From Thermoproteota archaeon (lineage in GTDB: Archaea; Thermoproteota; EX4484-205; JAAOZP01), in contig JAWCNV010000010.1 of assembly GCA_038848185.1 (NCBI GenBank), positions 1,361-65,360 of the forward strand: DNA of 64,000 nucleotides, read 5' to 3'. A program made the position numbers and the translations under genes. The notes below the pieces were generated by a model, which saw only the letters and a list, made by a program, of their open reading frames with translations, did no database searches and was not told the origin of the DNA. Below are positions 7,956-37,993 of this stretch, piece after piece. Positions within the stretch are counted from its first letter, which is position 1. Every line of letters starts with the position of its first letter.

Positions 7956-8156
7956 GGGTTTCCTACCTCATGGGAGAAAAATAAACATTGCGGGCATAAG
8001 TGAGGACATTCTAAGTATTCGGATGAGAATTTTCTCCATACGCTATTAGCCGAAAAGATTACATGTTTAGCCTTCACCGCGCAACATCCAGAATGTCCTT
8101 GAAAACTAGCATAATTTAGGTTTATTAGTGCCGTCAAGTCTAAGATAACTTGGAAA

Positions 8157-11396: not shown

Positions 11397-14300
11397 ATGC
11401 GCCACATATCGTTTACCGGTCTCAGGACCCCCCTGATACTTTCACTATTGGTCTTGATGCTTTTAACGCAGCTGACTTTCGTAACAGGATCCGTATCTTC
11501 GAGCAAAAGTAGTCCAGTCCAAATAAGCGATATTGGTAGTTTGAGCTTTGAAAACATCTTGGGGCATGTTGAAACCCTATCAGGATTCGGTTCCCGTGTT
11601 GTCGGTTACGATGGTTTCTTTGAGGCTGCTGACTATATTAAAGCATACTGGTCCTCTTTAGGCTTTGAGGTACGTGAAGAGAAATTTGACATGGTGACGC
11701 CTATCGTTGAAGACTGCTCTATAAAAGTAGAGACGGGTGATGGAACCATATTAGAGTTTGAGGCTTATCCACTTTGGCCTAATCACGTAAATCCTTGTCC
11801 CTACACAAGTCCTGAAGAGGGAGACAGGCTCATATACGTTGAAGGAGGGATTCCGGAAGATTTTGACGGCTCAAACCCGAAGGAAGCATTCGTCCTAATG
11901 GAATTTAATAATCGTTGGTATTGGAAGAACGCTGCTCTATTCGGTGCAAAAGGCATAATATTTCTTGAACCGGAAGAAACTACCGGTATCCAAGCTATTC
12001 AAAAAGTGTTCAGTATTCCAATAAACTTCCCTCGCCTATATGTAAGAGGCCAAACCGCCTCATATCTGAAGAATCTTGTAAAGCAAAGAGGAGAAGTCAA
12101 GATATGGGTAAACTCCAAGATGAAATGGGAACAGAAGAAAGTATCCAACATAATCGCAGTCATAGAGGGTTCTAACCCTGATACGAGAGACAAAGTGGCT
12201 GTCATAGGTGCTTACTATGATTCCTGGTCGATTGTGCCACAGCTTTCACCAGGTGCCACAGACTCCATAGGGATATCTTTCCTGTTAGAGCTTGGCAGGC
12301 TTTTAAAGGATACTCCTCCGGAAAGAACTGTCTGGCTAGTAGCTTTCGCAGGGCATTATCAAGGTTTGGCAGGTGGCAGGGAATTCATGGAGAAACATTT
12401 TGACGAGTTAGCTAGTAAACTTGAGATGATGTTAAGCGTTGACTTGGCGAGTGAGAGCGATATTTTAGCTGTTTACGCAACCGGTTCAATGTATGGGTAC
12501 TTGCAGCCACAGACGCTTTTAGCCAGATACAGTAGGTGGTTAGGTGATATCTTTTCAAAGTGGAAACCTGCTATTGAGAGTGCTATGGGTGAGGAGTATC
12601 ATGTGATAAACGGGGTCACTTGGTCAGACCCGAATTGGATAAGAAGTTCTCGCCCCTTCGAGCCTTTTCCAATATACTTCGAAGCCGAGATTTTCACCGA
12701 AGCCTGTTACGGTGGTGGTTTAGGTTTCGTTACAACGAACACCTTCAAAATATACCAGTATACGCCGTTAGACACAGTCGACAAGTTGATTCAAGATAAT
12801 ATTAGGAAACAAGTAAGCTTCCTGTGGCCAATACTGTACAATTGCGTTAACATGGAGGTAACTTACTTCCTTGCTCCAAAAAGGATAGCAACTGACTGGG
12901 GGTTAATCACTCTAACGATTCAGCTGGCTACGTATGATAAGATTACCGACTGGTTTAGAAGCTACTATCATGAGGATGCGATTTTTCTGGTTTCTGTTAG
13001 TGGGATTTCGTCTTCTCAGCAGCAAGTGGTTTACGCAGGTTTCTCAGCCCCCTCTTCAATAGGCTCTTTAAGAAGTGCTGTGGTACAGGGTGTGACAGTT
13101 GGACTGTTTGCCTCCTCTTCTGGTGTAAGCCAAGGGCAGGTTCAGCAGGGTTCGCTTGCAACCCCTCTTGGGTTCACCATGGTTGCTAAGCCTGATGCTC
13201 AAGGGCAGGTAGTTATTAAAGGAATAAGGCCTTTAACAGGTATTGACGTGCAAGCATACGTTATTGATCCGGAAACTGGAAAAATATTATGTGCAACAGA
13301 CACCGGGCCATTTGGAACCACCAAACTTAGGTATGGTGGTCTTTTCGGACAAGCCGCTGCAGCCGCAGCACCAACCCTTACCGCAGGTATGGAGGCACTA
13401 GTTTATCTCGCAGCATCAGGTGAGGGCGCTCGCTCTTTTAACCTCTTTGCCCCGCCATGGTGGCGATACGTTCCAATCATTAACGTTTCGTCGATCGCGA
13501 TATTAGGGCTTATTGATCCAGTTAACATTAAGGATGCGGCAGGACTGACACTAGAGGTCTACAACTTCATTTCTCACAGCTACCTTATTTGGAGAGATAC
13601 TCTTTCACCATGGCCAGAAACCATGGCTTTCATTCAACCAGATGTTCCTGTCGAAATCTTGATAAAAAGCGGAGGACGAATAGTGGCTATTTTAAACAAT
13701 GCCTCCAGCAAGTATCCTGAGGGTCAAGGCTACCTGCTTAAGCATGGTGAGACAAAAATCTTAACGATGTTTGATGCTGTAGATAGTGTGTTTTATCTTG
13801 CTCAGGCTAGAGCCGGCTTTTTGATGGAAAGAATGTCAGCAAATCCGAAGCTTGTACTCCATCTTGAGAAGATGAACAGTTTCAGAAAAGCCTCGGAAGA
13901 AGATCTGCAGAATGGGAAACTAGGTGAGTTCTACTCCCTATCTATTGCCTGCTGGCAATATGCGTTGCATGCTTACCTTTCTTCCTTCGAGCTAACATAT
14001 GACGTTGTTAATACAGCGTCTTTCTTCTTCTTCCTATCGGCCGCCTTCATAATTCTGGTTGCTAGGTTAATCGCAAGAAGAGAAGCCGGGGTAAAGCGTA
14101 TGATGTATATAATCGCTTTATTCTTAGTGGTAAATGTGCTTTTAGGATTAATTCATCCTGGTTACGCTATTTCATCAAATATCTGGATGCTTATAAATGG
14201 GTTGGCCATAATCCTGTTCTCAATCCTCTTGGTTTACGTTGTGATAGATGAGTTTAATGATGCTGTGAAAAGCATAAGCCAATCAATCCTTGGCTATCAT

Positions 14301-16055
14301 AAATCTGACATTGAGAGAAACAGCTTCATATTCTCCGCTTTCTCCATCGGTGTGGAAAACCTCAAAAAGAGGTATATTAGAACTGCTTTAACATTATCGA
14401 CCATCATAATAACCGTCCTTGCAATGACCATGTTCACAACTATGGGTTTAGTCGTTACGTCATATAAGACAGAGTTAGGCACGATGCCTGCTTACACAGG
14501 TTTCCTCATAAAGAAACCATTGCCTGACATCATTAATGTTCCCCTATCCGAGCTTTATATGATGGGAATAAATGATATTGCGTCACAAGGGCTCGGAGAA
14601 TTCCAAGCTTGCCCAAGAACTTGGATATATCCTCCGGGCATGAAGATGTTTGTAACATGGGCTAATGCGACGAAGTCAAGCATTAGGGCAATATTAGGAA
14701 TCACTCCAGAGGAGGCTAAATTATTAGAGCCTGCGCTTTCCTCTGGCACTACTTTCATGGAAGGTGCGGAGCGAGTAGCTTTGGTTAGTAGCGGTCTCGC
14801 CAGCCAGCTGAGTGAAGACCTTGGTATAGAGGTTAAGGTTGGTACTTCGATTAGTATTTACGGTATGCCTGTCACAGTCGTAGGGATCCTAGACGATGAG
14901 TTAAGCAAATCTGTTTTCAAAGACTTGGATGGTGGCGATTTTGTGCCCCTCAACCCAACCTCCTCACTTACGAGCGGAGCGCCGGTTTACCTCGATGTTA
15001 AAGAGGTACTAATTGTTCCCTATGATTTTGCAAGAAATGTCTTCAACGCTCAGCCTAACATCATCGTTTTACACTCCGGCACATCTATTAAAACTGAGGA
15101 TTTGGGTCAGCGTGCTTATGACTTGGCTTTGATACTACCCTTTGACATCTTCTTCGGCTCAATGCAGCATGAGTCCTCAGGCAAGGTTGCAACCAGAGAT
15201 GTATACTTAATCAGTGGAACTGAAAACATGCTGGTGCCTTTAACAATCTCTGCCTTAACGATTTTATCAATGATGCTGAGTGCAGTTTACGAAAGAACAA
15301 AGGAGATTACGACGCTTAGTACTCTAGGGCTTTCGCCACGCCACATCGGGTCAATCTTCCTAATAGAGTCAATAGCACTGGCTTTTATCGGCAGCTTCAT
15401 CGGCTATATAACGGGGGCAGGAGTAATGACTCTCTTATGGAGGCTGAACATGTTTCCCAAAGAATTGATTCCGAATGTGTCTTCAGGAGTAATAATTATA
15501 GTCATGGGTGTGATAATATTAGTTACGGTACTATCATCTGTTTACCCAATAGTTAGAGCCTCAAAACTAGCAACCCCGTCGTTACTGAGAAAGTGGCAGA
15601 TCGGAAGCAAACCGGTTGAAGACAGGTGGAGCGTAGCTTTACCCTTCAACGCTACTACCTCAGAGACGCTAGGGGTCTTAGAGTTTCTAGCTGAGTATTT
15701 TGAGGCTTCGTCTTCCACAAGCGGGAGGGCAGGACTCTTCATCCTCCTTAAGCCTGCAGAAATAATACAGGAGGATAATAGAAAAATCTTGAAAGTGCAG
15801 TTACAACTATCACCATTTGACGCTGGAATAATTCAAAATCTTGAAGTAGTTTGCCAGAGGATTGGTACCGATAGATATGGCTTCGGAATCCTGATAAATA
15901 GACTATTGGGCACGGAAAACCTTTGGGTTACGGCCAACAAGAACCTTCTCAGCGAACTTCGTAAACAGTTCCTATTCTGGAGGGCTCTTGGCGTAAGTGA
16001 TAAGGCAAAGTATATAGAGCGAGGGGAACGGAGGCAGAGCACTAGTAAGGAGTGA
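11397..16055 (+). CDS. Giant membrane protein: signal peptide, PA domain, degenerate M28-peptidase-like ectodomain, 3 TM, MacB/FtsX-type permease unit, conserved non-ATPase cytoplasmic C-terminal domain (cassette A, 'L' subunit)
   Basis: 1552 aa. Signal MRHISFTGLRTPLILSLLVLMLL. PA-like GDRLIYVEGG...AALFGAKGIIFLEPEE. M28-like VAVIGAYYDSWS...PGATDSIGISFLLELGR with metal ligands substituted (H to Y; DD to TD; EE to GH). MacB-type TM1 LKKRYIRTALTLSTIIITVLAMTMFT (around 14360-14460). FtsX core AVYERTKEITTLSTLGLSPRHIGSIFLIESIALAFIGSFIGY (around 15280-15400). About 170-aa C-terminal tail, no Walker A. Confidence 0.7.
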   Translation: MRHISFTGLRTPLILSLLVLMLLTQLTFVTGSVSSSKSSPVQISDIGSLSFENILGHVETLSGFGSRVVGYDGFFEAADYIKAYWSSLGFEVREEKFDMVTPIVEDCSIKVETGDGTILEFEAYPLWPNHVNPCPYTSPEEGDRLIYVEGGIPEDFDGSNPKEAFVLMEFNNRWYWKNAALFGAKGIIFLEPEETTGIQAIQKVFSIPINFPRLYVRGQTASYLKNLVKQRGEVKIWVNSKMKWEQKKVSNIIAVIEGSNPDTRDKVAVIGAYYDSWSIVPQLSPGATDSIGISFLLELGRLLKDTPPERTVWLVAFAGHYQGLAGGREFMEKHFDELASKLEMMLSVDLASESDILAVYATGSMYGYLQPQTLLARYSRWLGDIFSKWKPAIESAMGEEYHVINGVTWSDPNWIRSSRPFEPFPIYFEAEIFTEACYGGGLGFVTTNTFKIYQYTPLDTVDKLIQDNIRKQVSFLWPILYNCVNMEVTYFLAPKRIATDWGLITLTIQLATYDKITDWFRSYYHEDAIFLVSVSGISSSQQQVVYAGFSAPSSIGSLRSAVVQGVTVGLFASSSGVSQGQVQQGSLATPLGFTMVAKPDAQGQVVIKGIRPLTGIDVQAYVIDPETGKILCATDTGPFGTTKLRYGGLFGQAAAAAAPTLTAGMEALVYLAASGEGARSFNLFAPPWWRYVPIINVSSIAILGLIDPVNIKDAAGLTLEVYNFISHSYLIWRDTLSPWPETMAFIQPDVPVEILIKSGGRIVAILNNASSKYPEGQGYLLKHGETKILTMFDAVDSVFYLAQARAGFLMERMSANPKLVLHLEKMNSFRKASEEDLQNGKLGEFYSLSIACWQYALHAYLSSFELTYDVVNTASFFFFLSAAFIILVARLIARREAGVKRMMYIIALFLVVNVLLGLIHPGYAISSNIWMLINGLAIILFSILLVYVVIDEFNDAVKSISQSILGYHKSDIERNSFIFSAFSIGVENLKKRYIRTALTLSTIIITVLAMTMFTTMGLVVTSYKTELGTMPAYTGFLIKKPLPDIINVPLSELYMMGINDIASQGLGEFQACPRTWIYPPGMKMFVTWANATKSSIRAILGITPEEAKLLEPALSSGTTFMEGAERVALVSSGLASQLSEDLGIEVKVGTSISIYGMPVTVVGILDDELSKSVFKDLDGGDFVPLNPTSSLTSGAPVYLDVKEVLIVPYDFARNVFNAQPNIIVLHSGTSIKTEDLGQRAYDLALILPFDIFFGSMQHESSGKVATRDVYLISGTENMLVPLTISALTILSMMLSAVYERTKEITTLSTLGLSPRHIGSIFLIESIALAFIGSFIGYITGAGVMTLLWRLNMFPKELIPNVSSGVIIIVMGVIILVTVLSSVYPIVRASKLATPSLLRKWQIGSKPVEDRWSVALPFNATTSETLGVLEFLAEYFEASSSTSGRAGLFILLKPAEIIQEDNRKILKVQLQLSPFDAGIIQNLEVVCQRIGTDRYGFGILINRLLGTENLWVTANKNLLSELRKQFLFWRALGVSDKAKYIERGERRQSTSKE

Positions 16056-16061
16056 TAAGGA

Positions 16062-17942
16062 ATGGAAGAAGTCAAGCAGAAGGGGCTTACATGGAGGGCT
16101 GTTCTAGCAATCATATTCGTAGTGTTCGTCATAGAGCCAGCGATAGTTTACAACTGGCTGGTCAGTGGTCTTTGGGGGCTACCTCTTCAAAGCTGGGCAG
16201 TCATATTGCTATGGATTGGCTTGGCAAGGCTTCTAGGCTCCTCATTAAGCTCCAAGGAGATTTTTGTCATAAGAATGGTGGAGACAACAGGTCTAATGTT
16301 CACCGGCTACTACTTTGCATACTTACTGCGTAACCAGTATTTCGCAAATTCTGAAATAGCAGCACTGTTTGGCATGCAGGATCAAATACCCCCGTTCTTC
16401 TCGCCTCTTGGAGAGTTCGCCCAGAGATCCATGCTACAAAGGACATTTTTCGACTTTGCTTGGGCTCTGCCCATACTGGTCTCCGTTGTTATACCTGTAG
16501 TGCTCGTCGCAGTCGCCAATTATGTGCTTGGTCTGCTTGCCTTCAGACTCTACGTGCAGGAGGAGAAGCTGGAGTTTCCACTAGCCTCATGGGACGCTAG
16601 GACGATGAAAGCCTTCGGTGAAAGAGACAAAAGCCTGATCAAATATATTGCTCTCTCCATAATGGGTGGATTCCTTTACTCTGTAATGAGCCAAGGGCTC
16701 ACTACCATACTGGGGGTACCCCTGTTTCCACGCTATACCATAGATCTAACCAACATAGTTGAGACTATGCTTCCGGGGGCCTCGTTCTCCTTCAGCCTAG
16801 ATTTGTTATCTTATATAACTGGCTTCATCCTACCGATTCAATTTACAGCTGCGCAATTCATATCTTCAGTTGCACTATCTATTTTCGGAAACTATTACGT
16901 GACAGTTAACGATTTATGGCCTGCTGAGAGCAAATGGCAGGCTGGCCAAGGTTATCTCTGGATCTACCAGAGGTCTTCACTCTACTTCTGGAATAGCTTC
17001 ACAATAGGGTGGGGCATAGCAATGGCTGTAATTCCACTCTTGATAAGGTATAAGTCAGTCGTCAGAGCATTTACAAGAGTTGGTAGTGGTCTCGGAAAAA
17101 CGGAGAAAGGCAGTAGACTGCTTTCCAGCAAATTCCTTATTCTTATATACTTGGCTACTGCAGGAGCATCCATACTCATCACGAAGATTCTCATACCTGA
17201 CTTTCCTCTATGGGTCCTCGTGCTCTTCACGCTAGGAATCTCGTTTGTGATGACTCTGCTACAAACACACTCTGCAGGGATCACCGCCGGGTTTAGCGTC
17301 CCCTATCTTAGGGAAACCATGATATACTTTAGCGGTTACGATAGGATTGACATATGGTTCGCACCACCTGACATGATGCTTTTCCTCGGAGGATCAGGTA
17401 TAGCTCAACAGCTTAAGCAAGCATCTATGCTGGGCGTGGAAATAGAGGAGTATACTAAAGCGTATTTCCTAATGGTCTTCCTTGGGCTCTTGGGAAGCTT
17501 TATATTCGTTTCTCTCTTCTGGAGCCTCAGCCCTATACCCGGGTGGGCATACCCCTACACGATTTCAGCATGGCCTGTGGAAGCATTGAACTTCTGGAGG
17601 TGGCAAACCTGGCTCTGGTCTGGTTATCTCTTTAGAAGAGAAATGATGTTAACAGGTATTGGTGTCTCTACTGTGCTCTACCTGATATCGGACCTTGTTT
17701 TCCACATGCCTTCTTTCCCGATTGCAATGATGTCCGGAATGCTGATGGTTCCAAACATAGCTCTATCACAATTCCTGGGTTCCGTAATATCTGTAGGCAT
17801 AAGCAGGTTTTTAGGTAAGAAACTATGGGATGAAAACAAAGGGTTCTTTGTGATAGGTTTATCACTCGGAGACGGTCTCTTTTCCACAATTTTAAGGGTC
17901 CTAACATTGATAGGCAGGTCAGTATGGCTTAAGCCCTACTAA
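16062..17942 (+). CDS. Polytopic Trp-rich membrane protein, subfamily P1 (cassette A)
   Basis: 626 aa, 12 or more hydrophobic segments; homolog of 41143-43107 (GLTWRAVLAIIFVVFVIEPAIVYNWLVSG vs GLTWKTVLAIIFSSFIIQPAVIYLYLVSG); contains EKLEFPLAS motif; starts 7 nt after the upstream stop. Confidence 0.65.
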   Translation: MEEVKQKGLTWRAVLAIIFVVFVIEPAIVYNWLVSGLWGLPLQSWAVILLWIGLARLLGSSLSSKEIFVIRMVETTGLMFTGYYFAYLLRNQYFANSEIAALFGMQDQIPPFFSPLGEFAQRSMLQRTFFDFAWALPILVSVVIPVVLVAVANYVLGLLAFRLYVQEEKLEFPLASWDARTMKAFGERDKSLIKYIALSIMGGFLYSVMSQGLTTILGVPLFPRYTIDLTNIVETMLPGASFSFSLDLLSYITGFILPIQFTAAQFISSVALSIFGNYYVTVNDLWPAESKWQAGQGYLWIYQRSSLYFWNSFTIGWGIAMAVIPLLIRYKSVVRAFTRVGSGLGKTEKGSRLLSSKFLILIYLATAGASILITKILIPDFPLWVLVLFTLGISFVMTLLQTHSAGITAGFSVPYLRETMIYFSGYDRIDIWFAPPDMMLFLGGSGIAQQLKQASMLGVEIEEYTKAYFLMVFLGLLGSFIFVSLFWSLSPIPGWAYPYTISAWPVEALNFWRWQTWLWSGYLFRREMMLTGIGVSTVLYLISDLVFHMPSFPIAMMSGMLMVPNIALSQFLGSVISVGISRFLGKKLWDENKGFFVIGLSLGDGLFSTILRVLTLIGRSVWLKPY

Positions 17943-17955
17943 AACAGGCATCTGA

Positions 17956-17990
17956 ATATTTTTTTCCTAGTTTTTGATTATTGTTTTCAT
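17956..17990 (+). terminator. T-tract terminator candidate (ATATTTTTTTCC...TTTTTGATTATTGTTTTC)
   Basis: T7 run beginning 16 nt after the stop of the 626-aa gene; archaeal terminators are oligo-T tracts. Confidence 0.4.
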
Positions 17991-18003
17991 TATATGCTAG
18001 TAA

Positions 18004-18014
18004 AACTTATATAC
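18004..18014 (+). promoter_or_regulatory. TATA-like element (ACTTATATACT) for the 683-aa gene
   Basis: Centred about 34 nt upstream of ATG 18044. Confidence 0.35.
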
Positions 18015-18043
18015 TTCCAAACATCCTATTAGACGATGGTAAA

Positions 18044-20032
18044 ATGGCTGAAGAAGTTAAAAGTGCTTTAACACCCAAAATGTGGATATTCCTAATAGCG
18101 CTCTCGGTTTTGATGAGCCTTATCGGAGTATCGGCAGCGCCTTTCGCACCCTCATGGGCTTGGTCAACAGTCATGGGTTCTTTCACAGGTCCGATCGTAG
18201 TTCTGTTCATACTACTACTACTCTCTAAGGCTCTTAAGCTGCAGGGTTTAGGTCTTCAGAAGCTTGGTCTAGTATACACGGTATCATCAATATCCCTAAT
18301 CTTCTGCTGGAGCATGATTCCCTATGGTATACTCCACAACTCAGCAAACATGCGCATGGTAACATACGACCCATACACCACAGCACTTGCAGACCAGTTT
18401 GTTTTCGGACCGCGTGCAGAGGTAGCTTCCCAAATCCAGACGGGTGGCGCACTACACCTCGTAGGCGAATGGGCCCCCTGGATGGGATGGTGGTCAGCTT
18501 ACGCCATACTGTGGCTGGTGTTCTGGGTCGGATGGCTAGCATTGCTCCACGAGAGATGGATAGAGGTGGAGAAGCTACCTTTCCCGGCTGCTCTAACTGG
18601 AACACTGCAGATACAGCTGATAGCTGGTCCTGAAAAGGACGGCCGGCTCAAATACTTCCTAGTGGGTGTTGCGATAGGCGCATTAGTCATATTGCCGATA
18701 GTAGTACATGCACTCTACCCCGCCTTCCCCGACATATATGGTTGGACGGCTGACCCATATCTTCCATGGTGGATGGGCACGCTGAACCTTGCCGGAGTGC
18801 CTGCCGCATCAGCAATCCCTGTTATGAGCTTCCTTCCAGTGAACCCGATGGCTTACGCACTTTTCCTACTGTTCCCAACGAAAATACTCTTCTCAATATG
18901 GATATTCAGTCTACTAGGCGTGATCATACCGGCACAGATAGCGTGGTACATGGGCTACTACTCTGGAATACAAACGGCTGGTTGGAGAGCTGACTACCTG
19001 CTGTACCAAGAGCCGTTCAAGTATGGTGGCATATGGGTAGGCGCATTCGTAGGACTAGCCTTAATCTGGTTCGTTCTTAACGTACCCTACATGAAGAGCC
19101 TGTTCTCAAAATCTGTCGACGTCAGTAAAAAGGCTATTGCCCCCATGATGGGATGGATTATGATAATAGTGTCCACCATAGGGCTAATCGCTCTACTAAT
19201 CGTAGCAGGTGCTAATCCACTCGGCTCAATACTGATAGTTGTATCCATGTGGCTACTCTACATGGGTACGATGAGAGTATACGGCTTCGGCAGCATCGCT
19301 GGCTCAGCTTGGACCTCGCCCATAGACTGGCGTCAATTCCCGTGGATTACGAAGTATGTTTGGCACCCGGGAATGACGGCGGAGATGCTTAGCGCTAACC
19401 CGGCACTGGCCAAAGAATACTGTACGACCATGATGCTTACCAACAGGTTCACCGGAGAAATGATGGGTGAGATCAACACTCAATTCGGAATGTTATTCGC
19501 CATGCCGCTGTGCTACAAGGTTGGATACGATACTGGGACACATCCAAGAGACATAACTATGCTGATGCTGGTTTCAGGCATAATCTCAGCTGTGATAGGT
19601 TTCACACTATCTGTCGTGTTCGACTACGCTGCAGGGACAGCTAACACTCCCATGGGCATGTACGACGCTTGGTGGATATGGGTCTTTGCAGTACCAGGAA
19701 CCGTTGAGACCATACCTACAAGCGAACCTTTCTGGCCGTACCTATTAGCCGGTATCATCCTTTCTGCAGTACTGAGCTTCCTCAACTTCCGCTTCGCATG
19801 GTGGCCACTGGATCCTGCGGGTGTATGCGTTGCCCTTGGAGCAGGACCCGGAGGATGGATGCTTCCTGCGTTAGTCGGGTGGATCATTAAGACTGTGGCT
19901 GTGAGAATGGGTGGCTCTAAGCTTCACGACAACGTCATCATACCTATCGCCGTAGGGGTACTGGTTGGCTACTGGTTCCTCTGGTTCCTAGGGTCAATCA
20001 TAGGGCTCATAAAGTTCTTCATCCCTGCATAA
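18044..20032 (+). CDS. Polytopic Trp-rich membrane protein, subfamily P2 (cassette A)
   Basis: Start moved to MAEEVKSALTPKMW (ATG 18044) by homology to MAEEAAEVPS start of paralog 36020-37993. The ORF-track TTG at 17981 lies within the terminator/promoter region. Contains EKLPFPAAL motif; C-terminal GGSKLHDNVIIPIAVGVLVGYWFLWFLGSIIGLIKFFIP conserved with paralog. Confidence 0.65.
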   Translation: MAEEVKSALTPKMWIFLIALSVLMSLIGVSAAPFAPSWAWSTVMGSFTGPIVVLFILLLLSKALKLQGLGLQKLGLVYTVSSISLIFCWSMIPYGILHNSANMRMVTYDPYTTALADQFVFGPRAEVASQIQTGGALHLVGEWAPWMGWWSAYAILWLVFWVGWLALLHERWIEVEKLPFPAALTGTLQIQLIAGPEKDGRLKYFLVGVAIGALVILPIVVHALYPAFPDIYGWTADPYLPWWMGTLNLAGVPAASAIPVMSFLPVNPMAYALFLLFPTKILFSIWIFSLLGVIIPAQIAWYMGYYSGIQTAGWRADYLLYQEPFKYGGIWVGAFVGLALIWFVLNVPYMKSLFSKSVDVSKKAIAPMMGWIMIIVSTIGLIALLIVAGANPLGSILIVVSMWLLYMGTMRVYGFGSIAGSAWTSPIDWRQFPWITKYVWHPGMTAEMLSANPALAKEYCTTMMLTNRFTGEMMGEINTQFGMLFAMPLCYKVGYDTGTHPRDITMLMLVSGIISAVIGFTLSVVFDYAAGTANTPMGMYDAWWIWVFAVPGTVETIPTSEPFWPYLLAGIILSAVLSFLNFRFAWWPLDPAGVCVALGAGPGGWMLPALVGWIIKTVAVRMGGSKLHDNVIIPIAVGVLVGYWFLWFLGSIIGLIKFFIPA

Positions 20033-20052
20033 ATCGTTCGTATAAAAACCCG

Positions 20053-20080
20053 GATATTTTTTTCCTCATGTCTTTTCAAA
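20053..20080 (+). terminator. T-tract terminator candidate (GGATATTTTTTTCCTCATGTCTTTTC)
   Basis: Same ATATTTTTTTCC motif as at 17956, beginning 21 nt after the stop of the 683-aa gene. Confidence 0.4.
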
Positions 20081-20143
20081 ACCAGAATCACTATTAAATT
20101 TAATAACTGCCAGCGGACAATAAGGATAGTTGGAGTGAAGTTA

Positions 20144-20154
20144 AATTTATAAGT
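20144..20154 (+). promoter_or_regulatory. TATA box (AAATTTATAAG) for the 485-aa gene
   Basis: Centred about 29 nt upstream of ATG 20178. Confidence 0.45.
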
Positions 20155-20177
20155 AAGAGTCTCCTCCCCGTGTCTTC

Positions 20178-21635
20178 ATGAAAAACTCGTTTAACCACGT
20201 GAAAGGCTTTCTCCTTGCAATCATACTCATAATGTCTCTGAACATTCTGCTTCTAACGCCTCAGACCGAATACGTTTACTATGGTGTTATTCCAGAAAGA
20301 ATCTATGATTATGACCCCATCCAAGAAACAGACTTATCAAAAGGCTGGAGACTAGTACAGGCGACCGTAGCCACGCAAGGCTACATCTCTATCCTTGCTT
20401 CGCAGGACGGTACTCAGGTGAGAGTCTACACTCTTCCAGGAAAGGAGCTTGTCTCAGAATTCTCACTTAACTCTATGGAGAAGCGTTACGTTCCTCTTCC
20501 GAACGGAACCATGTTCAAGGTTGTTTCGAACAAGCTGGTTTCAGTCCTGCTAATATCTCCACCACCCAGAGGAATCCCGGGAGTTAACGCTACGGAGGGA
20601 CCTATTACAACAGGCTTCTACCTTTCTGTTGAGGGAGCATACGTTGGCAAGGAGTTCGTGATAGAGACTTCACAGGGGCTCTTAGGGCTTCTCCACACCA
20701 TATTTGCCGTGGAGGATGCTGAGGTAACGTTGACCGCTGAAGACGGAACTACACAAACCTTCAAGCTTAAGGCAAACACGTACAGAGAGTTGCAGCCTAA
20801 GCCTCTGAAAGCCTACAGGATAACCTCAACCGGAAACATAATGATTCAAGGCGGTTATATGGATGTTACAGGAACCAATATGCCGAGAAGCTTCTTCATA
20901 CCTTCAGCCGAAGGCGGCTTCGTAGGCAGAAGATTCTACTCCGGTGCCAGTGACACATCCGATGAAGGAATTTTACAGGAGGAAAACTGGTTCGTCATAT
21001 CTGCCTTGGAGGACGCTAAGGTCACAGTCTGGGACCTCTATAACCAGAAGGCTGCTACAGAGATCACTGTTAAGGCTGGGGAGCAGGCTTACGTTAAATG
21101 GGTCGAGATTAAAGTGTTTGAGGAAATAGCATTTGACAGTGATAAGCCGATAACTGTTCAGTTCCTCCACAGCGGCAGCATTAAAAGAGGCTATGGTATA
21201 GCCACTGGTGCAGGCTTCACCTACATGTGTATTAGGCCTAACGAGGATACTCCGTTCGTCCTACCGACAAACTCCACCATCTACGCATACCTCTTCACCA
21301 GTGAGGACGCTAACATCGTGGTCGACGACGTACCAATGACCCTCAGGCCAGACGAGCCCTGGATACTATCCACCCCGGGGCCTCACACAGTCAGGTCGAA
21401 CAAGAACCTGGTTCTCCTCCTGCTGCACTACCCGCTAATACCTCCAAACCAAGGCATAAACGGCTTCGGTGTTCCGGTACCGTGCGTTCAAACAGTTAGC
21501 GTAACTCCAAGCGTCACCCTGCGCCCACTGGGAGGAGAGGGGGCAGCAATCCCGACAAACTACATAATCATAATAGTGGTGGTAGTGGTCATAGTCGTGG
21601 TCGTCGCCGTCTTAATGAGAAGAAGAAAGAAGTAA
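20178..21635 (+). CDS. Secreted beta-rich protein with C-terminal TM anchor (…IIIIVVVVVIVVVVAVLMRRRKK), cassette A-specific
   Basis: 485 aa; N-terminal signal/TM MKNSFNHVKGFLLAIILIMSLNILLL; C-terminal poly-I/V helix plus RRRKK; no recognisable catalytic motifs. Confidence 0.6.
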   Translation: MKNSFNHVKGFLLAIILIMSLNILLLTPQTEYVYYGVIPERIYDYDPIQETDLSKGWRLVQATVATQGYISILASQDGTQVRVYTLPGKELVSEFSLNSMEKRYVPLPNGTMFKVVSNKLVSVLLISPPPRGIPGVNATEGPITTGFYLSVEGAYVGKEFVIETSQGLLGLLHTIFAVEDAEVTLTAEDGTTQTFKLKANTYRELQPKPLKAYRITSTGNIMIQGGYMDVTGTNMPRSFFIPSAEGGFVGRRFYSGASDTSDEGILQEENWFVISALEDAKVTVWDLYNQKAATEITVKAGEQAYVKWVEIKVFEEIAFDSDKPITVQFLHSGSIKRGYGIATGAGFTYMCIRPNEDTPFVLPTNSTIYAYLFTSEDANIVVDDVPMTLRPDEPWILSTPGPHTVRSNKNLVLLLLHYPLIPPNQGINGFGVPVPCVQTVSVTPSVTLRPLGGEGAAIPTNYIIIIVVVVVIVVVVAVLMRRRKK

Positions 21636-21644
21636 CCAACAGTA

Positions 21645-21660
21645 ATCTTTTTCTTTAATC
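21645..21660 (+). terminator. T-tract terminator candidate (ATCTTTTTCTTTAATC)
   Basis: Pyrimidine/T-rich tract 12 nt after the stop at 21635. Confidence 0.35.
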
Positions 21661-21715
21661 AGTATTTAAAGCCTAGGTTGCTAAGTGCTAGGGGAAAAAT
21701 TTTTAAGGGTTAGCA

Positions 21716-24700
21716 ATGGGGCTTTCCTTCATGCCGGTAAAAGCGAGGATACTTATGCTGGTTTATCTGCTTATTATTCTTTTTGCACTTTTCTCCATGA
21801 AAGTGAACGCTACTCCCGATAGCCTGATAGAAGTCTACGGCAGAGTTCTTAATGCTATGGATGGAAGCCCGGTTGAAGGAGCCACTGTTCTCATCCGGGA
21901 TGTTTCAGACCCGTCGATAAACCCTGTTCCGGGAGCAGGAATTTATATCACGGATGAGAAGGGGTCTTACGTGGCAGCTTCCCCTTATATTCGGATTGGT
22001 CACTACTATAGGATTTATGCTTTCAGAGGGGAGCTTCCACAGGGGCCTTTTGACTATGTTCCATCTAAACCCTTAACGTTAAAAATTGAAGAGGGTAAGA
22101 GTTTAAACATTTCTTTCAGGCTGGTTCCCGCTGCCTGCCTTATACTTGAAGGGGACATAATGTATGTTGAGGCCACTGGAACTGCCTTCAGGACCTCGGT
22201 AAGTATTGTTGACCCGTATACGGGAAGCCCGCCAGAAGTGTATGGTGCAGATTATGTTTCAACCTATTGGGCTTCTTCAGACTCTTGGTTCCTAGGCTTA
22301 GCTGAGAGGGTTGTTGTAATACCTGCCAATAAGAAGGTTTACTTAAGGGCAGACTCTTGGTTTCGAGTTGGAACCTACCTAAAGGCTTTCTCCTTCCTCA
22401 TTGATAATAATGGAGAAGGTTTCTCACTGCCTCAAGGTGGCATGCAAAATGTCAGTATCTGGGAGTACCCTTTAAGGAGAAGTTTAGAAATGGTGAGGGA
22501 TGTGCATTCAGAGGTTCTGCAGAAAACCGAGGATTTCTCTAGGTCTGGTTTCATAGTGTTTGATGAGCGGCAACGGCTTGAAGCTGCACGCCAAAAGTAT
22601 TTAGAGTCTCAAGGCCTAATTTATAGTAATCCTAGGGAAAGCTGGTATTCCATGAGAGAGGCTTATACGGAGATTTTGGCGGTTGATAATACTTTGAACT
22701 TCATGAAGTTCGCAGTAGCCACGGAAGCAGTAAGGCTTCCTATTTTTCTATCGGTTATGGCGGTTACGCTGGGCTTCTTTTCTTTTGAAGAAATTAGGAG
22801 AAAATTCTTATCCACATTAATATTTTATCTACTGCTCATATTTTTAATATTCCTGATATATCCTGGTGTTAGTACTTTCAGTAATGAGGATGTTAGAAAC
22901 TTCGTGATCTCGTCACTCATATCAATCTCAATTACTCTGGTTATTGTTTTCTTAATACCGAGGGTTTGGAGAGAACCCAGGGTTGAGGGGGAGGTTTCTC
23001 TTAGAAGTGTATTGAGCATCATTTTTTCAATGTCGAAGAGACAGGTGAGGAAAAGAAGGCTTAGAAGTATTTTCACTTTCCTGAGTCTCTGTATAATGGT
23101 TATGACATTTACTGCACTAACTTCCTTTGGAACAGTTTATGGGCTTAAGTATGAGACCACACCATTTACTAGTTCTAAAAGCGGGTTCCTAGTAAGGATG
23201 AGCAATATGGGTAATCTAACTTTCACCCCTATATCACCATCCGATCTTTCAGTTTTGAATGAAACGAATGAGTTATCTTATATTTCACCTAAGGTGGAAA
23301 GCTTAGGAGACGATCAGGCACTTGGAGAGTTGCTGTCGAGCTCGGGGCACCTCTTAAAGTTTTACGGGATCCTTGGAATAGACTTTAGCAATGAATGGAG
23401 ATATGTTGATGTAACGAATGCAATAACCGGAGACCTGCCTGCAGGGGGTAGTTCTGAAGAGATTGTAGTAAGCTCGCCAATGGCTGATGCATTAGGCATA
23501 AGTATTGGCGATTATGTAAATATATATGTGCGTGGAATAAATGAGCCGATAGAAACCGCTAAAGTTGTCGGTATCTTCAGCGAGTCAACTATAGGGTCAC
23601 TCACAGATCTCGGAGGTGGTAACTACCTGCCCCTGAGGTTTCTTAAGGTTGATGATAGGGTGACGGCTCGGCCATGTAATGCGAGCGACATATTTCTTAT
23701 GGATTGGAGAGGACTGCTCAGCTTGCAGTCTAAAGTGGAGTCTTTGCAACCTAGCGGTACACTTCAACTAGCAGCTATTTCAAGGGTGGCTTTCTCACTT
23801 AGGGAAGATGTGGATGTCGATCTTTCAAAACTAGTTAGACGGTTGACTTTTGTCTTCGGTTATGTTGTGAATATTGTGGGGCAAAACCAGGTTGAAACAT
23901 ACTCTCTAGGGTATTTCTACGAGACTAAGGGTATTGGCGAGATGATAATACCGATCATAATGGTCATGCTTAATACCGGTTCCATAATGCTCAATGTAGT
24001 GTATGAAAGACATAGGGAGATGAAGACTCTGACACTCTTAGGACTGAATCCTGTCCATATCGGATTGATTTTTGTGGCTGAAGCAATCATAATTGGTCTA
24101 ATAGGCGGGGGAATTGGATACGTTGTTGGATTAGGCTTCCAAAGGGTTATAGTTCTTTTTGGACAAGACCTTATGGTGAAGTCTAAAATAGAATGGTGGT
24201 GGAGCTTCATAGGTCTAGCGCTTTCTCTGTTGGTGTCTGTGCTTTCTTCTTGGAGAGCGGCGGCAGTAGCCGTCAAGATATATACCCCCTCAATGGTCAG
24301 GAAAGTTAAGACAGGCAAAGAGGAGAAGAAAATTAGGGAAGAAGAAATATTCAGGATTTTCCAGGGTAGAGAAGTTTCTATGCCTATAAGACTGCATCCT
24401 GTCGAGGTCGACTTCTTCACTGGATATGTGATTACGCGTCTTTCAGAGATGAAGTTTGGGTTTGCTGATCGGGTGGAGGACTTGGAAGAGATGAAGCCCC
24501 AACAGTTTAAGGATGGAAGCGTCCATAAGGGAGTCCACTTTAAGTACTTAAACATGATAAAGGGTCAGCTTCTCGGAACCAAAAACAGGGTCCTCTGCAT
24601 ACAGGATCCTGGGAAAGACTTTTTCAGAGTTTCTCTCGTGTATGAGCCAACTGTGCCAGGGATTCCTGAAGCGGTGGTTAAAAGAGTGGTGGAAATAATC

Positions 24701-24760
24701 AAAGACATATGCTACTCGTGGGTTAAAGAAAAAGACAGGATAGTCGTAGGCTTCAAATAG
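21716..24760 (+). CDS. Large membrane protein: signal/TM, carboxypeptidase-regulatory-like ectodomain, 3 TM, MacB/FtsX-type permease unit, conserved non-ATPase cytoplasmic C-terminal domain (cassette A, 'M' subunit)
   Basis: 1014 aa. Ectodomain VYGRVLNAMDGSPVEGATVLIRD (CarbopepD_reg/prealbumin-like). MacB-type TM1 KRQVRKRRLRSIFTFLSLCIMVMTFTALTSFG (around 23040-23130). FtsX core VVYERHREMKTLTLLGLNPVHIGLIFVAEAIIIGLIGGGIGYVVGLGF (around 23995-24140). About 160-aa cytoplasmic tail homologous to the tail of 38108-41134, no Walker A. Confidence 0.7.
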   Translation: MGLSFMPVKARILMLVYLLIILFALFSMKVNATPDSLIEVYGRVLNAMDGSPVEGATVLIRDVSDPSINPVPGAGIYITDEKGSYVAASPYIRIGHYYRIYAFRGELPQGPFDYVPSKPLTLKIEEGKSLNISFRLVPAACLILEGDIMYVEATGTAFRTSVSIVDPYTGSPPEVYGADYVSTYWASSDSWFLGLAERVVVIPANKKVYLRADSWFRVGTYLKAFSFLIDNNGEGFSLPQGGMQNVSIWEYPLRRSLEMVRDVHSEVLQKTEDFSRSGFIVFDERQRLEAARQKYLESQGLIYSNPRESWYSMREAYTEILAVDNTLNFMKFAVATEAVRLPIFLSVMAVTLGFFSFEEIRRKFLSTLIFYLLLIFLIFLIYPGVSTFSNEDVRNFVISSLISISITLVIVFLIPRVWREPRVEGEVSLRSVLSIIFSMSKRQVRKRRLRSIFTFLSLCIMVMTFTALTSFGTVYGLKYETTPFTSSKSGFLVRMSNMGNLTFTPISPSDLSVLNETNELSYISPKVESLGDDQALGELLSSSGHLLKFYGILGIDFSNEWRYVDVTNAITGDLPAGGSSEEIVVSSPMADALGISIGDYVNIYVRGINEPIETAKVVGIFSESTIGSLTDLGGGNYLPLRFLKVDDRVTARPCNASDIFLMDWRGLLSLQSKVESLQPSGTLQLAAISRVAFSLREDVDVDLSKLVRRLTFVFGYVVNIVGQNQVETYSLGYFYETKGIGEMIIPIIMVMLNTGSIMLNVVYERHREMKTLTLLGLNPVHIGLIFVAEAIIIGLIGGGIGYVVGLGFQRVIVLFGQDLMVKSKIEWWWSFIGLALSLLVSVLSSWRAAAVAVKIYTPSMVRKVKTGKEEKKIREEEIFRIFQGREVSMPIRLHPVEVDFFTGYVITRLSEMKFGFADRVEDLEEMKPQQFKDGSVHKGVHFKYLNMIKGQLLGTKNRVLCIQDPGKDFFRVSLVYEPTVPGIPEAVVKRVVEIIKDICYSWVKEKDRIVVGFK

Positions 24761-27295: not shown

Positions 27296-27299
27296 TTCT

Positions 27300-35388: not shown

Positions 35389-36060
35389 CTAACCTGTAGG
35401 ACGCTTAGCTACTGATTCAATAGCCTTCTTGCCTAGTGAAATGATGATCCTCCATACTTCTAGCCAAGCGGCTAGTAATGTAAATATGAGGCCAATCCCA
35501 GATATGAAAATGCCTAGACTCCATTGTGATTTTAGGAAACTGCTATCATAAGATGTTTCGCTTGATGGTGGCGGAAGCCCGCTGAAGACTGTTATCCGCG
35601 TCCAGCCTTGGACGAAGACACCTAAACATATCATCATCAGCGTCGTCCCAATGGTTAAGCCCAAGGCTCTTTTCGTCCAGGTTTTTGCTAAAGCACTAAT
35701 GATAATTATTATAATGGCAATGGGCTGTAGAGTAAGAACACTAGATGTAGGCGGTTTATCCCATCGCCCAGAAAAGACGAGTTTCAGAGTGGTCTCATCA
35801 TACTGTTGCCATAGAGGGTAGACTTTCCACTGCACCTCTCTACCATCTAAGTTACCGTTTAACTCGTACCAAGGAAGGAATAAGCTTACTGTGAGCAGTG
35901 CTCCGGCGATAAGCCCCAGACTGTTTCTACCGCCTTCCAATGGGTCGGGTCGACGCTGACTGTTTATAAAACTAACTCTTAAGCATGATGCATAGAGAAA
36001 AAGAAATAGGGTTTTCCTCTTAGAATGGGAAGAAGAATCTGATGATGCCGAGTACAGCAC
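35389..36060 (-). CDS. Small multi-TM membrane protein, cassette B-specific
   Basis: ORF-track GTG start at 36060 overlaps the upstream gene by 41 nt; an in-frame TTG at 35940 (…PDP-L-EGGRNSLGLIAGALLTVSLFLPWY) would give a 183-aa, non-overlapping protein with about 4 TM. Start uncertain. Confidence 0.45.
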   Translation of the reverse strand: MLYSASSDSSSHSKRKTLFLFLYASCLRVSFINSQRRPDPLEGGRNSLGLIAGALLTVSLFLPWYELNGNLDGREVQWKVYPLWQQYDETTLKLVFSGRWDKPPTSSVLTLQPIAIIIIIISALAKTWTKRALGLTIGTTLMMICLGVFVQGWTRITVFSGLPPPSSETSYDSSFLKSQWSLGIFISGIGLIFTLLAAWLEVWRIIISLGKKAIESVAKRPTG

Positions 36061-37993
36061 TGAGGAATAGCGCTAGGTTCCAGCCAACCATTATTCCAAC
36101 TGCAAGTGGAAGCCCCTTGTTCTCCCAGAGCGGGACTCCGCCTACTCTGAATGTTATCTTCTTGAGTACGTATGCGATCGTCCAGCTTGTTAGCATGAAG
36201 GTGTTGACTCCTGCCACACCGGCCCATACTCCTATGGGGTCGAGTGGGAACTTGAACCATAGCATTCTTGCTAAGTATATGACAACTATTACTATTCCGC
36301 CAGCTATAGCTGACCAGACCCAATTCCAGTCGGGCGACGGGTACTGCTGCATCCTAGTGGGATCATGGAGCATGTACATCCACCATCCATCCGTAGTTAG
36401 GCTCCTGTAGAGTTTTGATCCAAACATGTGTCTGAGCTGGAGTGCGAGTGGGAATGAGACTATTGCGGAGACCACCATTGAAATGGTCATTGCTATAGCT
36501 ATATCGCGGAGGTTCGTGCCAGTAGCCTTTGCTATTCTGAATGTAATCATGACGTCAGAGTTATTTGTCCAGTTGAGAACGTTCTGGGGTCTATTTATCA
36601 TAAGGTAGTCATTCACCATAGGTGCCGTAACCTTGCTTGCAGTTACACCCGTATACATCCAGTTGATCCAGCCTGGAGACTCCATCCAGTCGCCGAGCCA
36701 TGGGCCTCCGTAACCAGCGCTTCGCGCACGTACGCTCCCATGAAGGAAATGCACGAAAATTATCATGCCTGCCCCTAGGAGGCTGGTTGCACCTATTTCG
36801 ACATTTGCAACAAATAGGAGCACTATTGCCACAAAAAATATGATGCAGCTGAACCTGAAGGGTATCGGTTCTTGAGCATCCACCTTAGGGTCAGGTTTAC
36901 GAGCCCACTTTAATGTTTGAACAAGGTAACGCCAGTTTAAGACAATCCATGTCAATATTATTGCGGTAACCATGCCGTATGATGCCATGGCATAGAAGTA
37001 GAATGGTGCTCCCTGTCCCAGCACATCTCGCTTGGTAGTTACCTCCGAGACTGTTAAGGCAGTCGAGTAGTAGCCAAAGTAATAAGCTATCTGAGGAAGG
37101 ACGATCATGAATACTATGTTAGAGATAATTCCTGAGAGCAGTATATCCGTAGGTATCAGGTAGGCGAAAGCTATTGCTGAAGGATTGAACTGTAAGCCGT
37201 TCAGACCTACCAGCGTCTCCTTAAGTGGCGTTTTAGTAGTATCTATAGTGAAGAGAGCCCAAGATATCCAGGGGTCCTTTCCCAAACCATATATGTCTGG
37301 GAACCATGGGAACACATATTTCAAAGCCTGCGGCAGGAATATCAGAAAGCCTATTATACCGCCTATCAAGAGAAGTAGCCTCCTTCCCTTCCTTTCCTCA
37401 GCCTTTGAAAGGTCCATAATAAGTTCAGTGCCCGTGTATGAGGAAGGATATGGAAGCGCTTCCACATCCATCCATTGGCGCCTATAAATACTCATTAGAC
37501 TGAGCATGAAGACCCACCATAGTATTGAAAGCAGTATCCATCCTGAGAGCGCAGGCAGATATTCTCCCCACGGTACTTCAACTCCTCCTTTAAGCTGGAG
37601 ACGTGCAATATCCAATGTTGGACCCCAGAGCATTGAGAACCATTGCCTCCACTGGGGGTTGTATAATCTTGAAGTCAACATGTTATCAAGTATACCCATG
37701 GGGACATTTCCATAGGAGTACATGACCGTGACTGTGAATGTAGCCCAGAGTACTGTGAGAAGCTTCGCATTTATCTTCTTCAGCCTCGGGAGCCCCTCCC
37801 CCAGAAGTAGAAGTATACTTAGGATTATCAGGCCTATGTTTCCAGGGCTGAAAGTACTGCCTCCCACCCAGCTTGGGCTGAAAGCGGTCACCGTTATGCT
37901 GAATGCTGAGAGAATTGCTGCTATAATCGCTGTGATAACCATCATCAAAGGAGTCATTATTCTTGAGGGAACTTCAGCCGCTTCTTCGGCCAT
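36020..37993 (-). CDS. Polytopic Trp-rich membrane protein, subfamily P2 (cassette B)
   Basis: 657 aa; MAEEAAEVPS start; VEALPYPSSYTG motif; C-terminal GGVPLWENKGLPLAVGIMVGWNLALFLSAVLGIIRFFFPF homologous to 18044-20032. Confidence 0.65.
   Translation of the reverse strand: MAEEAAEVPSRIMTPLMMVITAIIAAILSAFSITVTAFSPSWVGGSTFSPGNIGLIILSILLLLGEGLPRLKKINAKLLTVLWATFTVTVMYSYGNVPMGILDNMLTSRLYNPQWRQWFSMLWGPTLDIARLQLKGGVEVPWGEYLPALSGWILLSILWWVFMLSLMSIYRRQWMDVEALPYPSSYTGTELIMDLSKAEERKGRRLLLLIGGIIGFLIFLPQALKYVFPWFPDIYGLGKDPWISWALFTIDTTKTPLKETLVGLNGLQFNPSAIAFAYLIPTDILLSGIISNIVFMIVLPQIAYYFGYYSTALTVSEVTTKRDVLGQGAPFYFYAMASYGMVTAIILTWIVLNWRYLVQTLKWARKPDPKVDAQEPIPFRFSCIIFFVAIVLLFVANVEIGATSLLGAGMIIFVHFLHGSVRARSAGYGGPWLGDWMESPGWINWMYTGVTASKVTAPMVNDYLMINRPQNVLNWTNNSDVMITFRIAKATGTNLRDIAIAMTISMVVSAIVSFPLALQLRHMFGSKLYRSLTTDGWWMYMLHDPTRMQQYPSPDWNWVWSAIAGGIVIVVIYLARMLWFKFPLDPIGVWAGVAGVNTFMLTSWTIAYVLKKITFRVGGVPLWENKGLPLAVGIMVGWNLALFLSAVLGIIRFFFPF

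Follow-up and report, generated by a model that had tools for sequence, protein, structure and literature searches.

What does a peptidase-like head do on a membrane protein built around the fold of a permease? The question is raised by open reading frame (ORF) A, which lies in 64,000 nucleotides of contig JAWCNV010000010.1 from a Thermoproteota archaeon (the whole stretch analysed, here called the window). An initial annotation had drawn attention to the interval 11814-12450, corresponding to aa 140-351 of the ORF A protein, as part of a protease-associated (PA) plus M28 ectodomain with a dead catalytic site, and had pointed to a paralog in the same window, here ORF B. We find that this is a real and conserved feature. 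Its most interesting aspect is a family-wide remodelled site carried by a type VII permease that is coupled to OPT-like membrane proteins; from these associations we infer a function. Coordinates are collected in Table 1.

First, we asked how A and B are related. An alignment of the two proteins spans their full length, with 31% identity. Besides the near-identical P0001 (100%) and P0002 (90%), the closest homologs of A (P0003-P0008) are 57-61% identical to it, and the closest homologs of B (P0066, P0071 and P0122) share 52-56% identity with B. Because each has closer relatives in other organisms, A and B represent two old subfamilies and did not arise by a recent duplication. Both ORFs, and all the motifs quoted from them in the initial annotation, were found where it had placed them; the paralogous interval, given there as about 46699-47332, has its equivalent in ORF B at ~46685-47332. 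The old duplication that it proposed holds for the paralogs themselves, as their 31% identity indicates, but the altered site appears to date to the origin of a large family and not to a duplication at this locus.

We read the ligand columns of the M28 site from HMMER alignments of A with 3iib, 6hc6, 2ek8 and 4twe, and of B with the Drosophila glutaminyl cyclase 4fbe, against a canonical set that we take to be His97, Asp99, Asp117, Glu151, Glu152, Asp179 and His256 in AAP numbering. The His97 ligand is tyrosine in both proteins (Y273 in A, Y278 in B), while Asp99 is kept (D275 and, by the A-B alignment, D280). The bridging Asp117 is kept in A as D289, the D of GATDS, a motif common to glutaminyl cyclase, and is E294 in B. 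The general base Glu151 is histidine in both (H320, H325), the ligand Glu152 is Y321 in A and F326 in B, the ligand Asp179 is kept in both (D349, D354), and the ligand His256 is Y455 in A and M463 in B. An M28 di-metal site has one His and one terminal carboxylate per metal plus a bridging carboxylate (PMC4320195). The five co-catalytic zinc ligands thus read Tyr, Asp, Tyr, Asp, Tyr in A and Tyr, Glu, Phe, Asp, Met in B; in A, two Asp ligands survive, the other three and the catalytic base having been replaced. The initial annotation was correct in treating AYYDS and AGHYQG as ligand and base changes (Y273 at His97; H320 and Y321 at Glu151 and Glu152), and in finding the same altered state in two paralogs only 31% identical. 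Its statement that all catalytic metal ligands are substituted is contradicted by D289 and D349, and its reading of GADDNASG becoming GATDSIG as a ligand loss by D289, the retained bridging Asp. The Pfam M28 model likewise gave a significant match and the HMMER alignments placed the motifs clearly, but part of the zinc ligands proved to be present. We rejected an active leucyl-aminopeptidase-type enzyme, as the five-ligand set is incomplete and the general-base Glu is replaced by His.

Next, we asked whether this pattern extends beyond the window. A full-length search gave 191 clusters at 90% identity. The best 120 of these, which our tally covers, are almost all proteins of 1,450-1,600 aa with M28 plus FtsX (a few are partial sequences). 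Their hosts are Thermoproteota (Thermofilaceae, Bathyarchaeia) and Armatimonadota, and databases call them 'M28 family peptidase' or 'FtsX-like permease'. An exhaustive search in which the ectodomain alone was the query retrieved 511 cluster representatives (50% identity) at E<=1e-30; the best 150, which we examined, are nearly all 1,430-1,600 aa long and all of one family. This M28-FtsX family has hosts among Bathyarchaeia, Thermofilaceae, other Thermoproteota, Armatimonadota and Planctomycetota. Residues were tallied in 238 sequences, the 120 and 118 further 50%-cluster representatives. The catalytic Glu occurs in none of the 238 and His takes its place in 215 (115 of the 120 and 100 of the 118, with Glu at zero in each set). 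The Glu152 position is mostly aromatic in the set of 120; among the 118 it is W/Y/F in 75, His in 22, Asn in 11 and Glu in a single sequence. The His256 position is unconstrained in both sets. By comparison, Asp99 is Asp in all 120 and all 118, and Asp179 is Asp in 107 and 96, respectively. The bridging position holds Asp in 84 and Glu in 26 of the 120, and Glu in 69 and Asp in 43 of the 118. At His97 the larger set has Tyr in 92, His in 21 and Phe in seven, and the other set His in 61 and Tyr in 46; P0035 and P0040 are examples of homologs that keep the His. His at position 97, Asp or Glu at 117 and Asp at 179 are all kept together in 61 of the 118 representatives.

The altered residues are among the best conserved of the domain. 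Ranked by conservation among 460 ectodomain positions (40-500), D275 is first, H320 13th, D349 30th, Q322 46th and Y273 58th; the Glu152 site ranks 178th and the His256 site 376th. K203, R213, R328 and N129 are conserved as well. Even Planctomycetota members at ~24% identity retain AFAGHYQALAG. G-H-[YWF]-Q is therefore a new signature of the family, under strong purifying selection. These sequences indicate that the family lost the general base and the Glu152/His256 half-site at its origin, whereas roughly half of its lineages retained the other half-site, whose His has changed to Tyr in A and B. Such an M28 domain is incapable of canonical co-catalytic aminopeptidase chemistry. The conservation of H320, D275 and D349 shows that the altered pocket is under purifying selection; it is remodelled and not decayed, in a form compatible with binding or with new catalysis. 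'Dead site' is thus too strong a term, with two Asp kept and about half of the wider family having the full His/Asp/Asp half-site. The earlier proposal of a selected binding role rather than decay is supported by the conservation ranks as far as selection goes, but conservation does not separate binding from new catalysis. The loss of the canonical catalytic residues could also be taken to mean that the M28-like region is a decaying relic, a functionless spacer. We give this next to no chance: it is effectively refuted by the conservation data, the pattern being kept across at least 238 archaeal and bacterial sequences and in both of two paralogs so divergent, and the predicted structure described below is highly confident.

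New catalysis has more in its favour. A mononuclear metal could be held at His/Tyr273, Asp/Glu289 and Asp349, with His320 as general acid/base, and a surface peptide, glycopeptide or acyl-amide could be processed there and its products imported by the OPT-like transporters encoded nearby. The half-site retained in the 61 representatives and the near-invariant H320 fit such an enzyme, as does the resemblance of the partners to OPT, the oligopeptide-transporter family. The E151H variant of the Aeromonas aminopeptidase is reportedly 'functional', in the wording of the title of a 2005 study by Bzymek that PMC3426542 and PMC4320195 cite. Against this, the half-site His is Tyr in A and B and Phe in some members, and Asn, Ser or Gly may stand at the Asp117 site, so metal is not bound throughout the family. 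Glutaminyl cyclases, which have a mononuclear M28 fold, keep Glu-Glu and use the Asp/Glu/His half-site with the catalytic Glu; it is this half-site that is lost family-wide, whereas the M28-FtsX family keeps the opposite one and has His for the catalytic Glu. Nor did we see any enrichment nearby of peptidase or amino-acid catabolism genes. We consider a new enzyme of this kind unlikely, although with a real chance of being correct.

To what, then, is the ectodomain related? Pfam Peptidase_M28 (PF04389) matches A with 44.7 bits and B with 48.6 bits (cut-off 21.3; E 1.6e-11 and 1.1e-12). Pfam PA (PF02225) does not match A, where the only related hit is ZNRF3_ecto at E 0.06; it gives B 16.4 bits, under the cut-off of 23.9, and the homolog P0092 26.6 bits, over it. 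Because the match for A is not significant in Pfam, its PA assignment rests on structure and homologs. An AF2 model of A aa 31-880, built with a 90-sequence family alignment, has pLDDT 90.3 and pTM 0.90, and in this prediction a PA fold is inserted into the M28 core. The best Foldseek matches for the ectodomain model are PA-M28 aminopeptidases (2ek8, 3iib, BSAP and PaAP; E 1e-25 to 1e-22 over 470-495 aligned columns), followed by GCPII, GCPIII, TfR1 and NAALADase L at E about 1e-20. A 14-sequence family profile matches 2ek8 (E 3.9e-15, chain residues 9-307) and also NAALADase L (2e-5) and nicalin (2e-4). Transferrin receptor (TfR) is not matched by this profile and has no sequence-level match in the HMMER alignments either. 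The PA plus M28 fold originally proposed is thus borne out by Pfam for M28 and by AF2 and Foldseek for the combination, but Pfam PA stays below threshold in both A and B. Downstream of the M28 core the model has beta strands (model residues 474-760), with helices only as a pre-membrane stalk. The beta-rich region of A contains Ser/Gln-rich (12999-13140, + strand) and Ala-rich (13347-13390, + strand) low-complexity loops with pLDDT of ~45-60, which are missing from B and appear as gaps in the A-B alignment.

By homology, the nearest relatives of the A/B ectodomain are bacterial PA-M28 aminopeptidases (Aneurinibacillus AM-1, 2ek8; Shewanella, 3iib; Bacillus BSAP/YwaD, 6hc6; Pseudomonas PaAP, 8ac7). 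These enzymes are secreted, soluble and active, and hold two zinc ions with the full His/Asp/Glu-Glu/Asp/His set; A and B have other residues at the catalytic Glu and in one half-site, and their domain heads a 1,550-aa membrane protein. In TfR1 and GCPII/PSMA (M28B) the anchor is N-terminal and of type II, and a helical dimerisation domain lies at the C terminus; A and B have neither. Their N termini are signal-peptide-like, with sites between VTG and S or between ALA and Q, and the membrane anchor lies C-terminal to the ectodomain. We therefore rejected a TfR/PSMA orthologue, given the lack of a type II anchor and of a helical domain after M28 and the bacterial PA-M28 nearest relatives; the description 'transferrin-receptor/PSMA-like' does not hold for the same reasons, as structure comparison ranks the bacterial enzymes above GCPII and TfR1. 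TfR is a non-enzymatic M28B relative, and NAALADase L, which had been cited with it as an example of a binding role, is reported to be an active aminopeptidase (PMC10794815) and hence is a poor binding-only parallel. GCPII, like NAALADase L, is an active enzyme. In logic A and B do resemble TfR, and they resemble GPAA1, nicalin and nicastrin more so, because those proteins have M28-fold heads on transmembrane (TM) regions within membrane machines. GPAA1 (a GPI transamidase subunit), nicalin and nicastrin differ from A and B in belonging to eukaryotic complexes of the endoplasmic reticulum and secretory pathway with unrelated membrane partners, and in lacking a PA insert of the A/B type and a MacB-type permease.

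We then turned to the membrane half of the protein. Pfam FtsX matches both A and B and MacB_PCD matches A, and a second AF2 model (A aa 861-1552, pLDDT 90.6) matches MacB, LolC/E, Spr0694-0695, HrtB, YtrF, YbbP and BceB in Foldseek, with E 1e-10 to MacB, LolCE and Spr0694-0695. The fusion of the ectodomain to an FtsX-fold permease, as first annotated, is therefore confirmed. Hydropathy and the models together give a topology with a signal peptide, an ~840-aa ectodomain outside, three TM helices and a cytoplasmic linker, followed by a MacB-type TM1, an extracytoplasmic core, TM2-4 with a coupling-helix motif, and a cytoplasmic domain. TM1, an extracytoplasmic Porter/Sabre-like domain, TM2-4 and the coupling-helix motif are common to A, B and the type VII permeases MacB, LolC/E, FtsX, HrtB, YtrF, BceB and YbbP. 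To this plan the M28-FtsX family adds the 840-aa N-terminal ectodomain, the three TM helices, the conserved C-terminal cytoplasmic domain and the coupling to OPT-like genes. The C-terminal domain, TPSLxRKW...PFD...RKQFLxWR (15573-16052, + strand, and the C terminus of B), has many residues that are invariant or near-invariant family-wide. It shows weak matches to the SRPBCC-like (Bet v1-like) fold (E 0.01-0.04) and may occupy the spot where an ATPase normally docks. Pfam has no family for this domain, for the beta-rich middle, for the neighbouring 626/654-aa and 485-aa proteins or for a 223-aa ORF.

Characterised type VII permeases have a fused or adjacent ATPase, and here none is found nearby. 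Six-frame translation of the 64-kb window contains no Walker A or LSGGQ motif; the window nonetheless encodes an ABC-2 type membrane protein at 109-933. We collected 31 related loci with 10-kb flanks from Bathyarchaeia, Thermofilaceae, Thermoproteales, Armatimonadota, Planctomycetota and one unclassified bacterium, using a 14-sequence alignment that reaches the closer relatives and two Planctomycetota loci. An ABC ATPase lies within 10 kb in one of the 31, in a separate Opp-type operon. Thus the type VII permease fold is present (TM1, extracytoplasmic core, TM2-4), and a cognate ATPase was not found in its vicinity. The family may still be a classical type VII ABC machine whose nucleotide-binding domain is encoded elsewhere. 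Force would then be passed to the ectodomain as in FtsEX, LolCDE and MacB, for an envelope role such as work on S-layer or surface proteins or the extraction or export of lipids or peptides, and the M28-like head would bind a partner. The fold matches to MacB, LolCE, FtsX, HrtB, YtrF and BceB and the conserved coupling-helix motif after TM2 argue for such a machine, and a second FtsX-type protein encoded in some loci could give a LolC/LolE-like heterodimer. All characterised type VII systems are ATPase-driven (PMC5985334, PMC12646458), and annotation already recognises a category of orphan FtsX-type permeases (NCBIfam ADOP). What speaks against it is that the 10-kb flanks show no ATPase at 30 of 31 loci, which are drawn from Bathyarchaeia, Thermofilaceae, other Thermoproteota and two bacterial phyla, that the family has its own conserved cytoplasmic C-terminal domain instead, and that the genes tightly coupled to it are those of OPT-like transporters and not of envelope enzymes. 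The envelope of Planctomycetota and Armatimonadota differs from that of S-layer archaea, and the occurrence of the family in both kinds of host disfavours an envelope-specific role. On balance we regard an ATP-driven machine of this kind as rather unlikely.

The M28-FtsX gene is always linked to genes for OPT-like polytopic membrane proteins of the DUF6785 kind, one or two in number. A gene of the 626-aa family lies directly 3' of it, often overlapping, wherever an archaeal locus extends far enough, and likewise in one Planctomycetota locus, and a DUF6785 gene adjoins it in most of the 31 loci, bacterial ones included. No other neighbour family is conserved across these loci. DUF6785 and DUF6784 were matched through PF20581 and PF20580. 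The 626-aa family aligns to DUF6785 with an hhalign probability of 98.8% (E 9e-17, 529 columns), and OPT is matched by four of 16 DUF6785 members (best E 2.4e-8). Sequence comparison links neither the DUF6785 nor the 626-aa family to any solved structure, and the searchable literature holds no description of an M28-FtsX fusion in archaea, nor of DUF6784, DUF6785 or DUF6786. The Planctomycetota members (L030, 9455-15163; L031, 8460-11243) are longer, at 1903 aa, with a ~240-aa insertion directly after GHYQ, and adjoin a 1132-aa DUF6785-like protein.

Within the window, the two clusters at 11397-24760 (+ strand) and 35389-47749 (- strand) are paralogous, with four to five genes each whose products are 28-37% identical pairwise. 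Each includes a second FtsX-type protein of ~1010 aa (21716-24760, + strand; 38108-41134, - strand) with extra TM helices, a PCD and a C-terminal cytoplasmic domain; a protein of this type occurs in only some of the related loci. By analogy with LolC and LolE, this protein and the M28-FtsX protein could form a pair. A 485-aa protein (20178-21635, + strand) and a 397-aa protein (9863-11056, - strand) are beta-rich and secreted, with a C-terminal TM anchor and a basic tail, and have no Pfam match. In many loci of Bathyarchaeia and Thermofilaceae, one to four members of the 485-aa family are encoded next to M28-FtsX, and proteins of this family are candidate surface binding proteins.

Taking the altered but conserved pocket together with the fused permease without a nearby ATPase and the OPT-like neighbours, we favour a receptor over a peptidase: the A/B ectodomain would be a non-peptidase receptor or scaffold subunit of an uptake complex, a reading that we hold tentatively and at slightly less than an even chance. 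The remodelled pocket, with its His, aromatic, Gln and Asp residues, is predicted to bind a ligand or partner. The ectodomain would act at the cell surface in one membrane complex with the OPT-like proteins, in nutrient capture and uptake, and the MacB-like unit would couple or anchor it without a classical ATP-driven export cycle. The nutrient would most likely be an oligosaccharide or glycan-derived substrate. A glycan-derived ligand is our leading guess because of the residue content of the pocket and the sugar-catabolic context of these genes.

In the window, clusters A and B converge on a glycoside hydrolase (GH) island at 24787-35205, with genes for a GlcNAc-2-epimerase-like protein, GH5, GH42, GH3, a 395-aa protein and a mannanase-GBD protein; the two clusters and the island resemble a polysaccharide-utilisation supercluster. 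Elsewhere in the window are GH4, GH97, further GH-like genes, DUF6786 and a second GBD protein. GH130 together with TrmB is found at other loci, as are GH38, fucose isomerase and MFS genes. A Pfam tally of 143 other neighbours is led by AP_endonuc_2 (9) and GFO/IDH/MocA (7-8), and no peptidase family is among its 25 most frequent Pfam families.

Several observations weigh against a receptor or scaffold of this kind. The coupling-helix motif (ERxxEI...G) after TM2 is conserved, which suggests a docked cytoplasmic partner, and an ATPase could be encoded outside the 10-kb flanks. The His/Asp/Asp half-site in much of the family and the invariant His at the general-base position also fit a mononuclear enzyme. 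As for the sugar context, there is little of it at loci L001, L002 and L009, and the enrichment of AP_endonuc_2 and GFO/IDH/MocA may reflect partly their abundance in genomes and partly the related loci L003 and L019 being counted twice.

A broader proposal can be built on the receptor reading. The three or four linked genes (DUF6785, M28-FtsX, the 626-aa protein and sometimes the second FtsX) might constitute a new class of nutrient-uptake machine of archaea and bacteria, in which an ATPase-less type VII scaffold is coupled to OPT-like transporters driven by proton-motive force and a pseudo-peptidase head, as a tethered receptor, captures the substrate, possibly oligosaccharides, and passes it on to them. 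In this complete form we think the proposal improbable.

Other features of the window are noted here for completeness. A DUF6786 protein (57785-58813, + strand) is encoded near the GH97 gene (60449-62392, - strand), and the Pfam number of DUF6786 is consecutive with those of DUF6784 and DUF6785. The GH4 gene lies near the start of the window (1492-2838, + strand). A mechanically called ORF of 1107 aa (5171-8494, - strand) overlaps an RraA-like gene (8157-8864, + strand) and has probably been called too long; if translation began instead at 7954, where MKKEVSVITVLG reads like the start of a signal peptide, the product would be secreted, ~927 aa in length, and would contain a mannanase galactose-binding-like domain. 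Directly beside cluster B is an operon (47975-54073, + strand) for NurA, HerA, an Mre11-like phosphoesterase and a Rad50-like SMC ATPase, which are the archaeal DNA end-resection set; its presence confirms that the DNA is archaeal. The 64-kb window contains no tRNA gene and no match to an Rfam family.

Table 1. Positions of ORFs A and B, their domains and site motifs, and the linked membrane-protein genes in the window.
Feature	Position	Strand	Remarks
ORF A	11397..16055	+	4,659 nt, 1552 aa
Signal peptide of A	11397..11495	+	Hydrophobic core aa 4-22; putative cleavage between VTG and S (inferred); sequence, hydropathy
PA plus M28-fold ectodomain of A	11496..12866	+	About aa 34-490
PA insert of A	11772..12116	+	Approximate, aa 126-240; holds GDRLIYVEGG and AALFGAKGIIFLEPEE; aligned to PA regions of 2ek8 and 6hc6
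Y273-Y274-D275	12213..12221	+	Y273 in place of His97-type ligand; D275 invariant
GATDSIG, aa 286-292	12252..12272	+	D289, retained equivalent of bridging Asp
AGHYQG, aa 318-323	12348..12365	+	H320 for catalytic Glu151, Y321 for ligand Glu152
D349	12441..12443	+	Retained Asp179-type ligand
YQYTPLDT, aa 453-460	12753..12776	+	Y455 at His256 position; T-P-x-D kept
Beta-rich domains of A, then three-helix stalk	12867..14006	+	AF2 secondary structure, pLDDT
Three extra TM helices of A	14007..14252	+	aa 874-950; hydropathy, second-model helices
MacB/LolC/FtsX-type unit of A	14373..15572	+	TM1, extracytoplasmic PCD, TM2, coupling helix (YERTKEITTLSTLG), TM3, TM4; Pfam, Foldseek, profile matches
C-terminal cytoplasmic alpha/beta domain of A	15573..16052	+	~160 aa, highly conserved; without nucleotide-binding motif
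626-aa polytopic membrane protein	16062..17942	+	Starts 6 nt after A; remote DUF6785/OPT-like homolog
683-aa DUF6785 plus DUF6784 membrane protein	17981..20032	+	Pfam
485-aa beta-rich surface protein	20178..21635	+	Signal peptide, C-terminal TM anchor; recurrent neighbour
1014-aa second MacB/FtsX-type protein, cluster A	21716..24760	+	N-terminal CarboxypepD_reg-like domain
657-aa DUF6785 plus DUF6784 protein, cluster B	36020..37993	-	
1008-aa second FtsX-type protein, cluster B	38108..41134	-	
654-aa paralog of the 626-aa protein	41143..43107	-	37% identity; directly downstream of B
ORF B	43124..47749	-	1541 aa, full-length paralog of A
YHMTPLDT (M463) of B	about 46346-46369	-	Beyond the first-half M28 motifs
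PA and first half of the M28 domain of B	46685..47332	-	AYYDS (Y278), GATES (E294), SGHFQS (H325, F326), SLDLSY (D354)

Counts of M28 have been taken as a sign of extracellular aminopeptidase potential in sediment metagenomes (PMC6752024), and hundreds of proteins of this family are named 'M28 family peptidase' in Bathyarchaeia, Thermofilaceae, other Thermoproteota, Armatimonadota and Planctomycetota. Because they are without the canonical catalytic machinery, M28-FtsX proteins should be flagged as non-peptidase homologues. A MacB/FtsX-type permease that goes with OPT-like proteins and has no ATPase nearby is at odds with the ATP-driven mechanotransmission model of type VII ABC systems, and the family would offer a tractable system for asking how type VII scaffolds are energised. 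In pseudoenzyme evolution it provides a prokaryotic parallel to TfR, GPAA1, nicalin and nicastrin, and an unusual one, since half of the metal site has been retained and half lost, and an invariant His has taken the place of the catalytic Glu.

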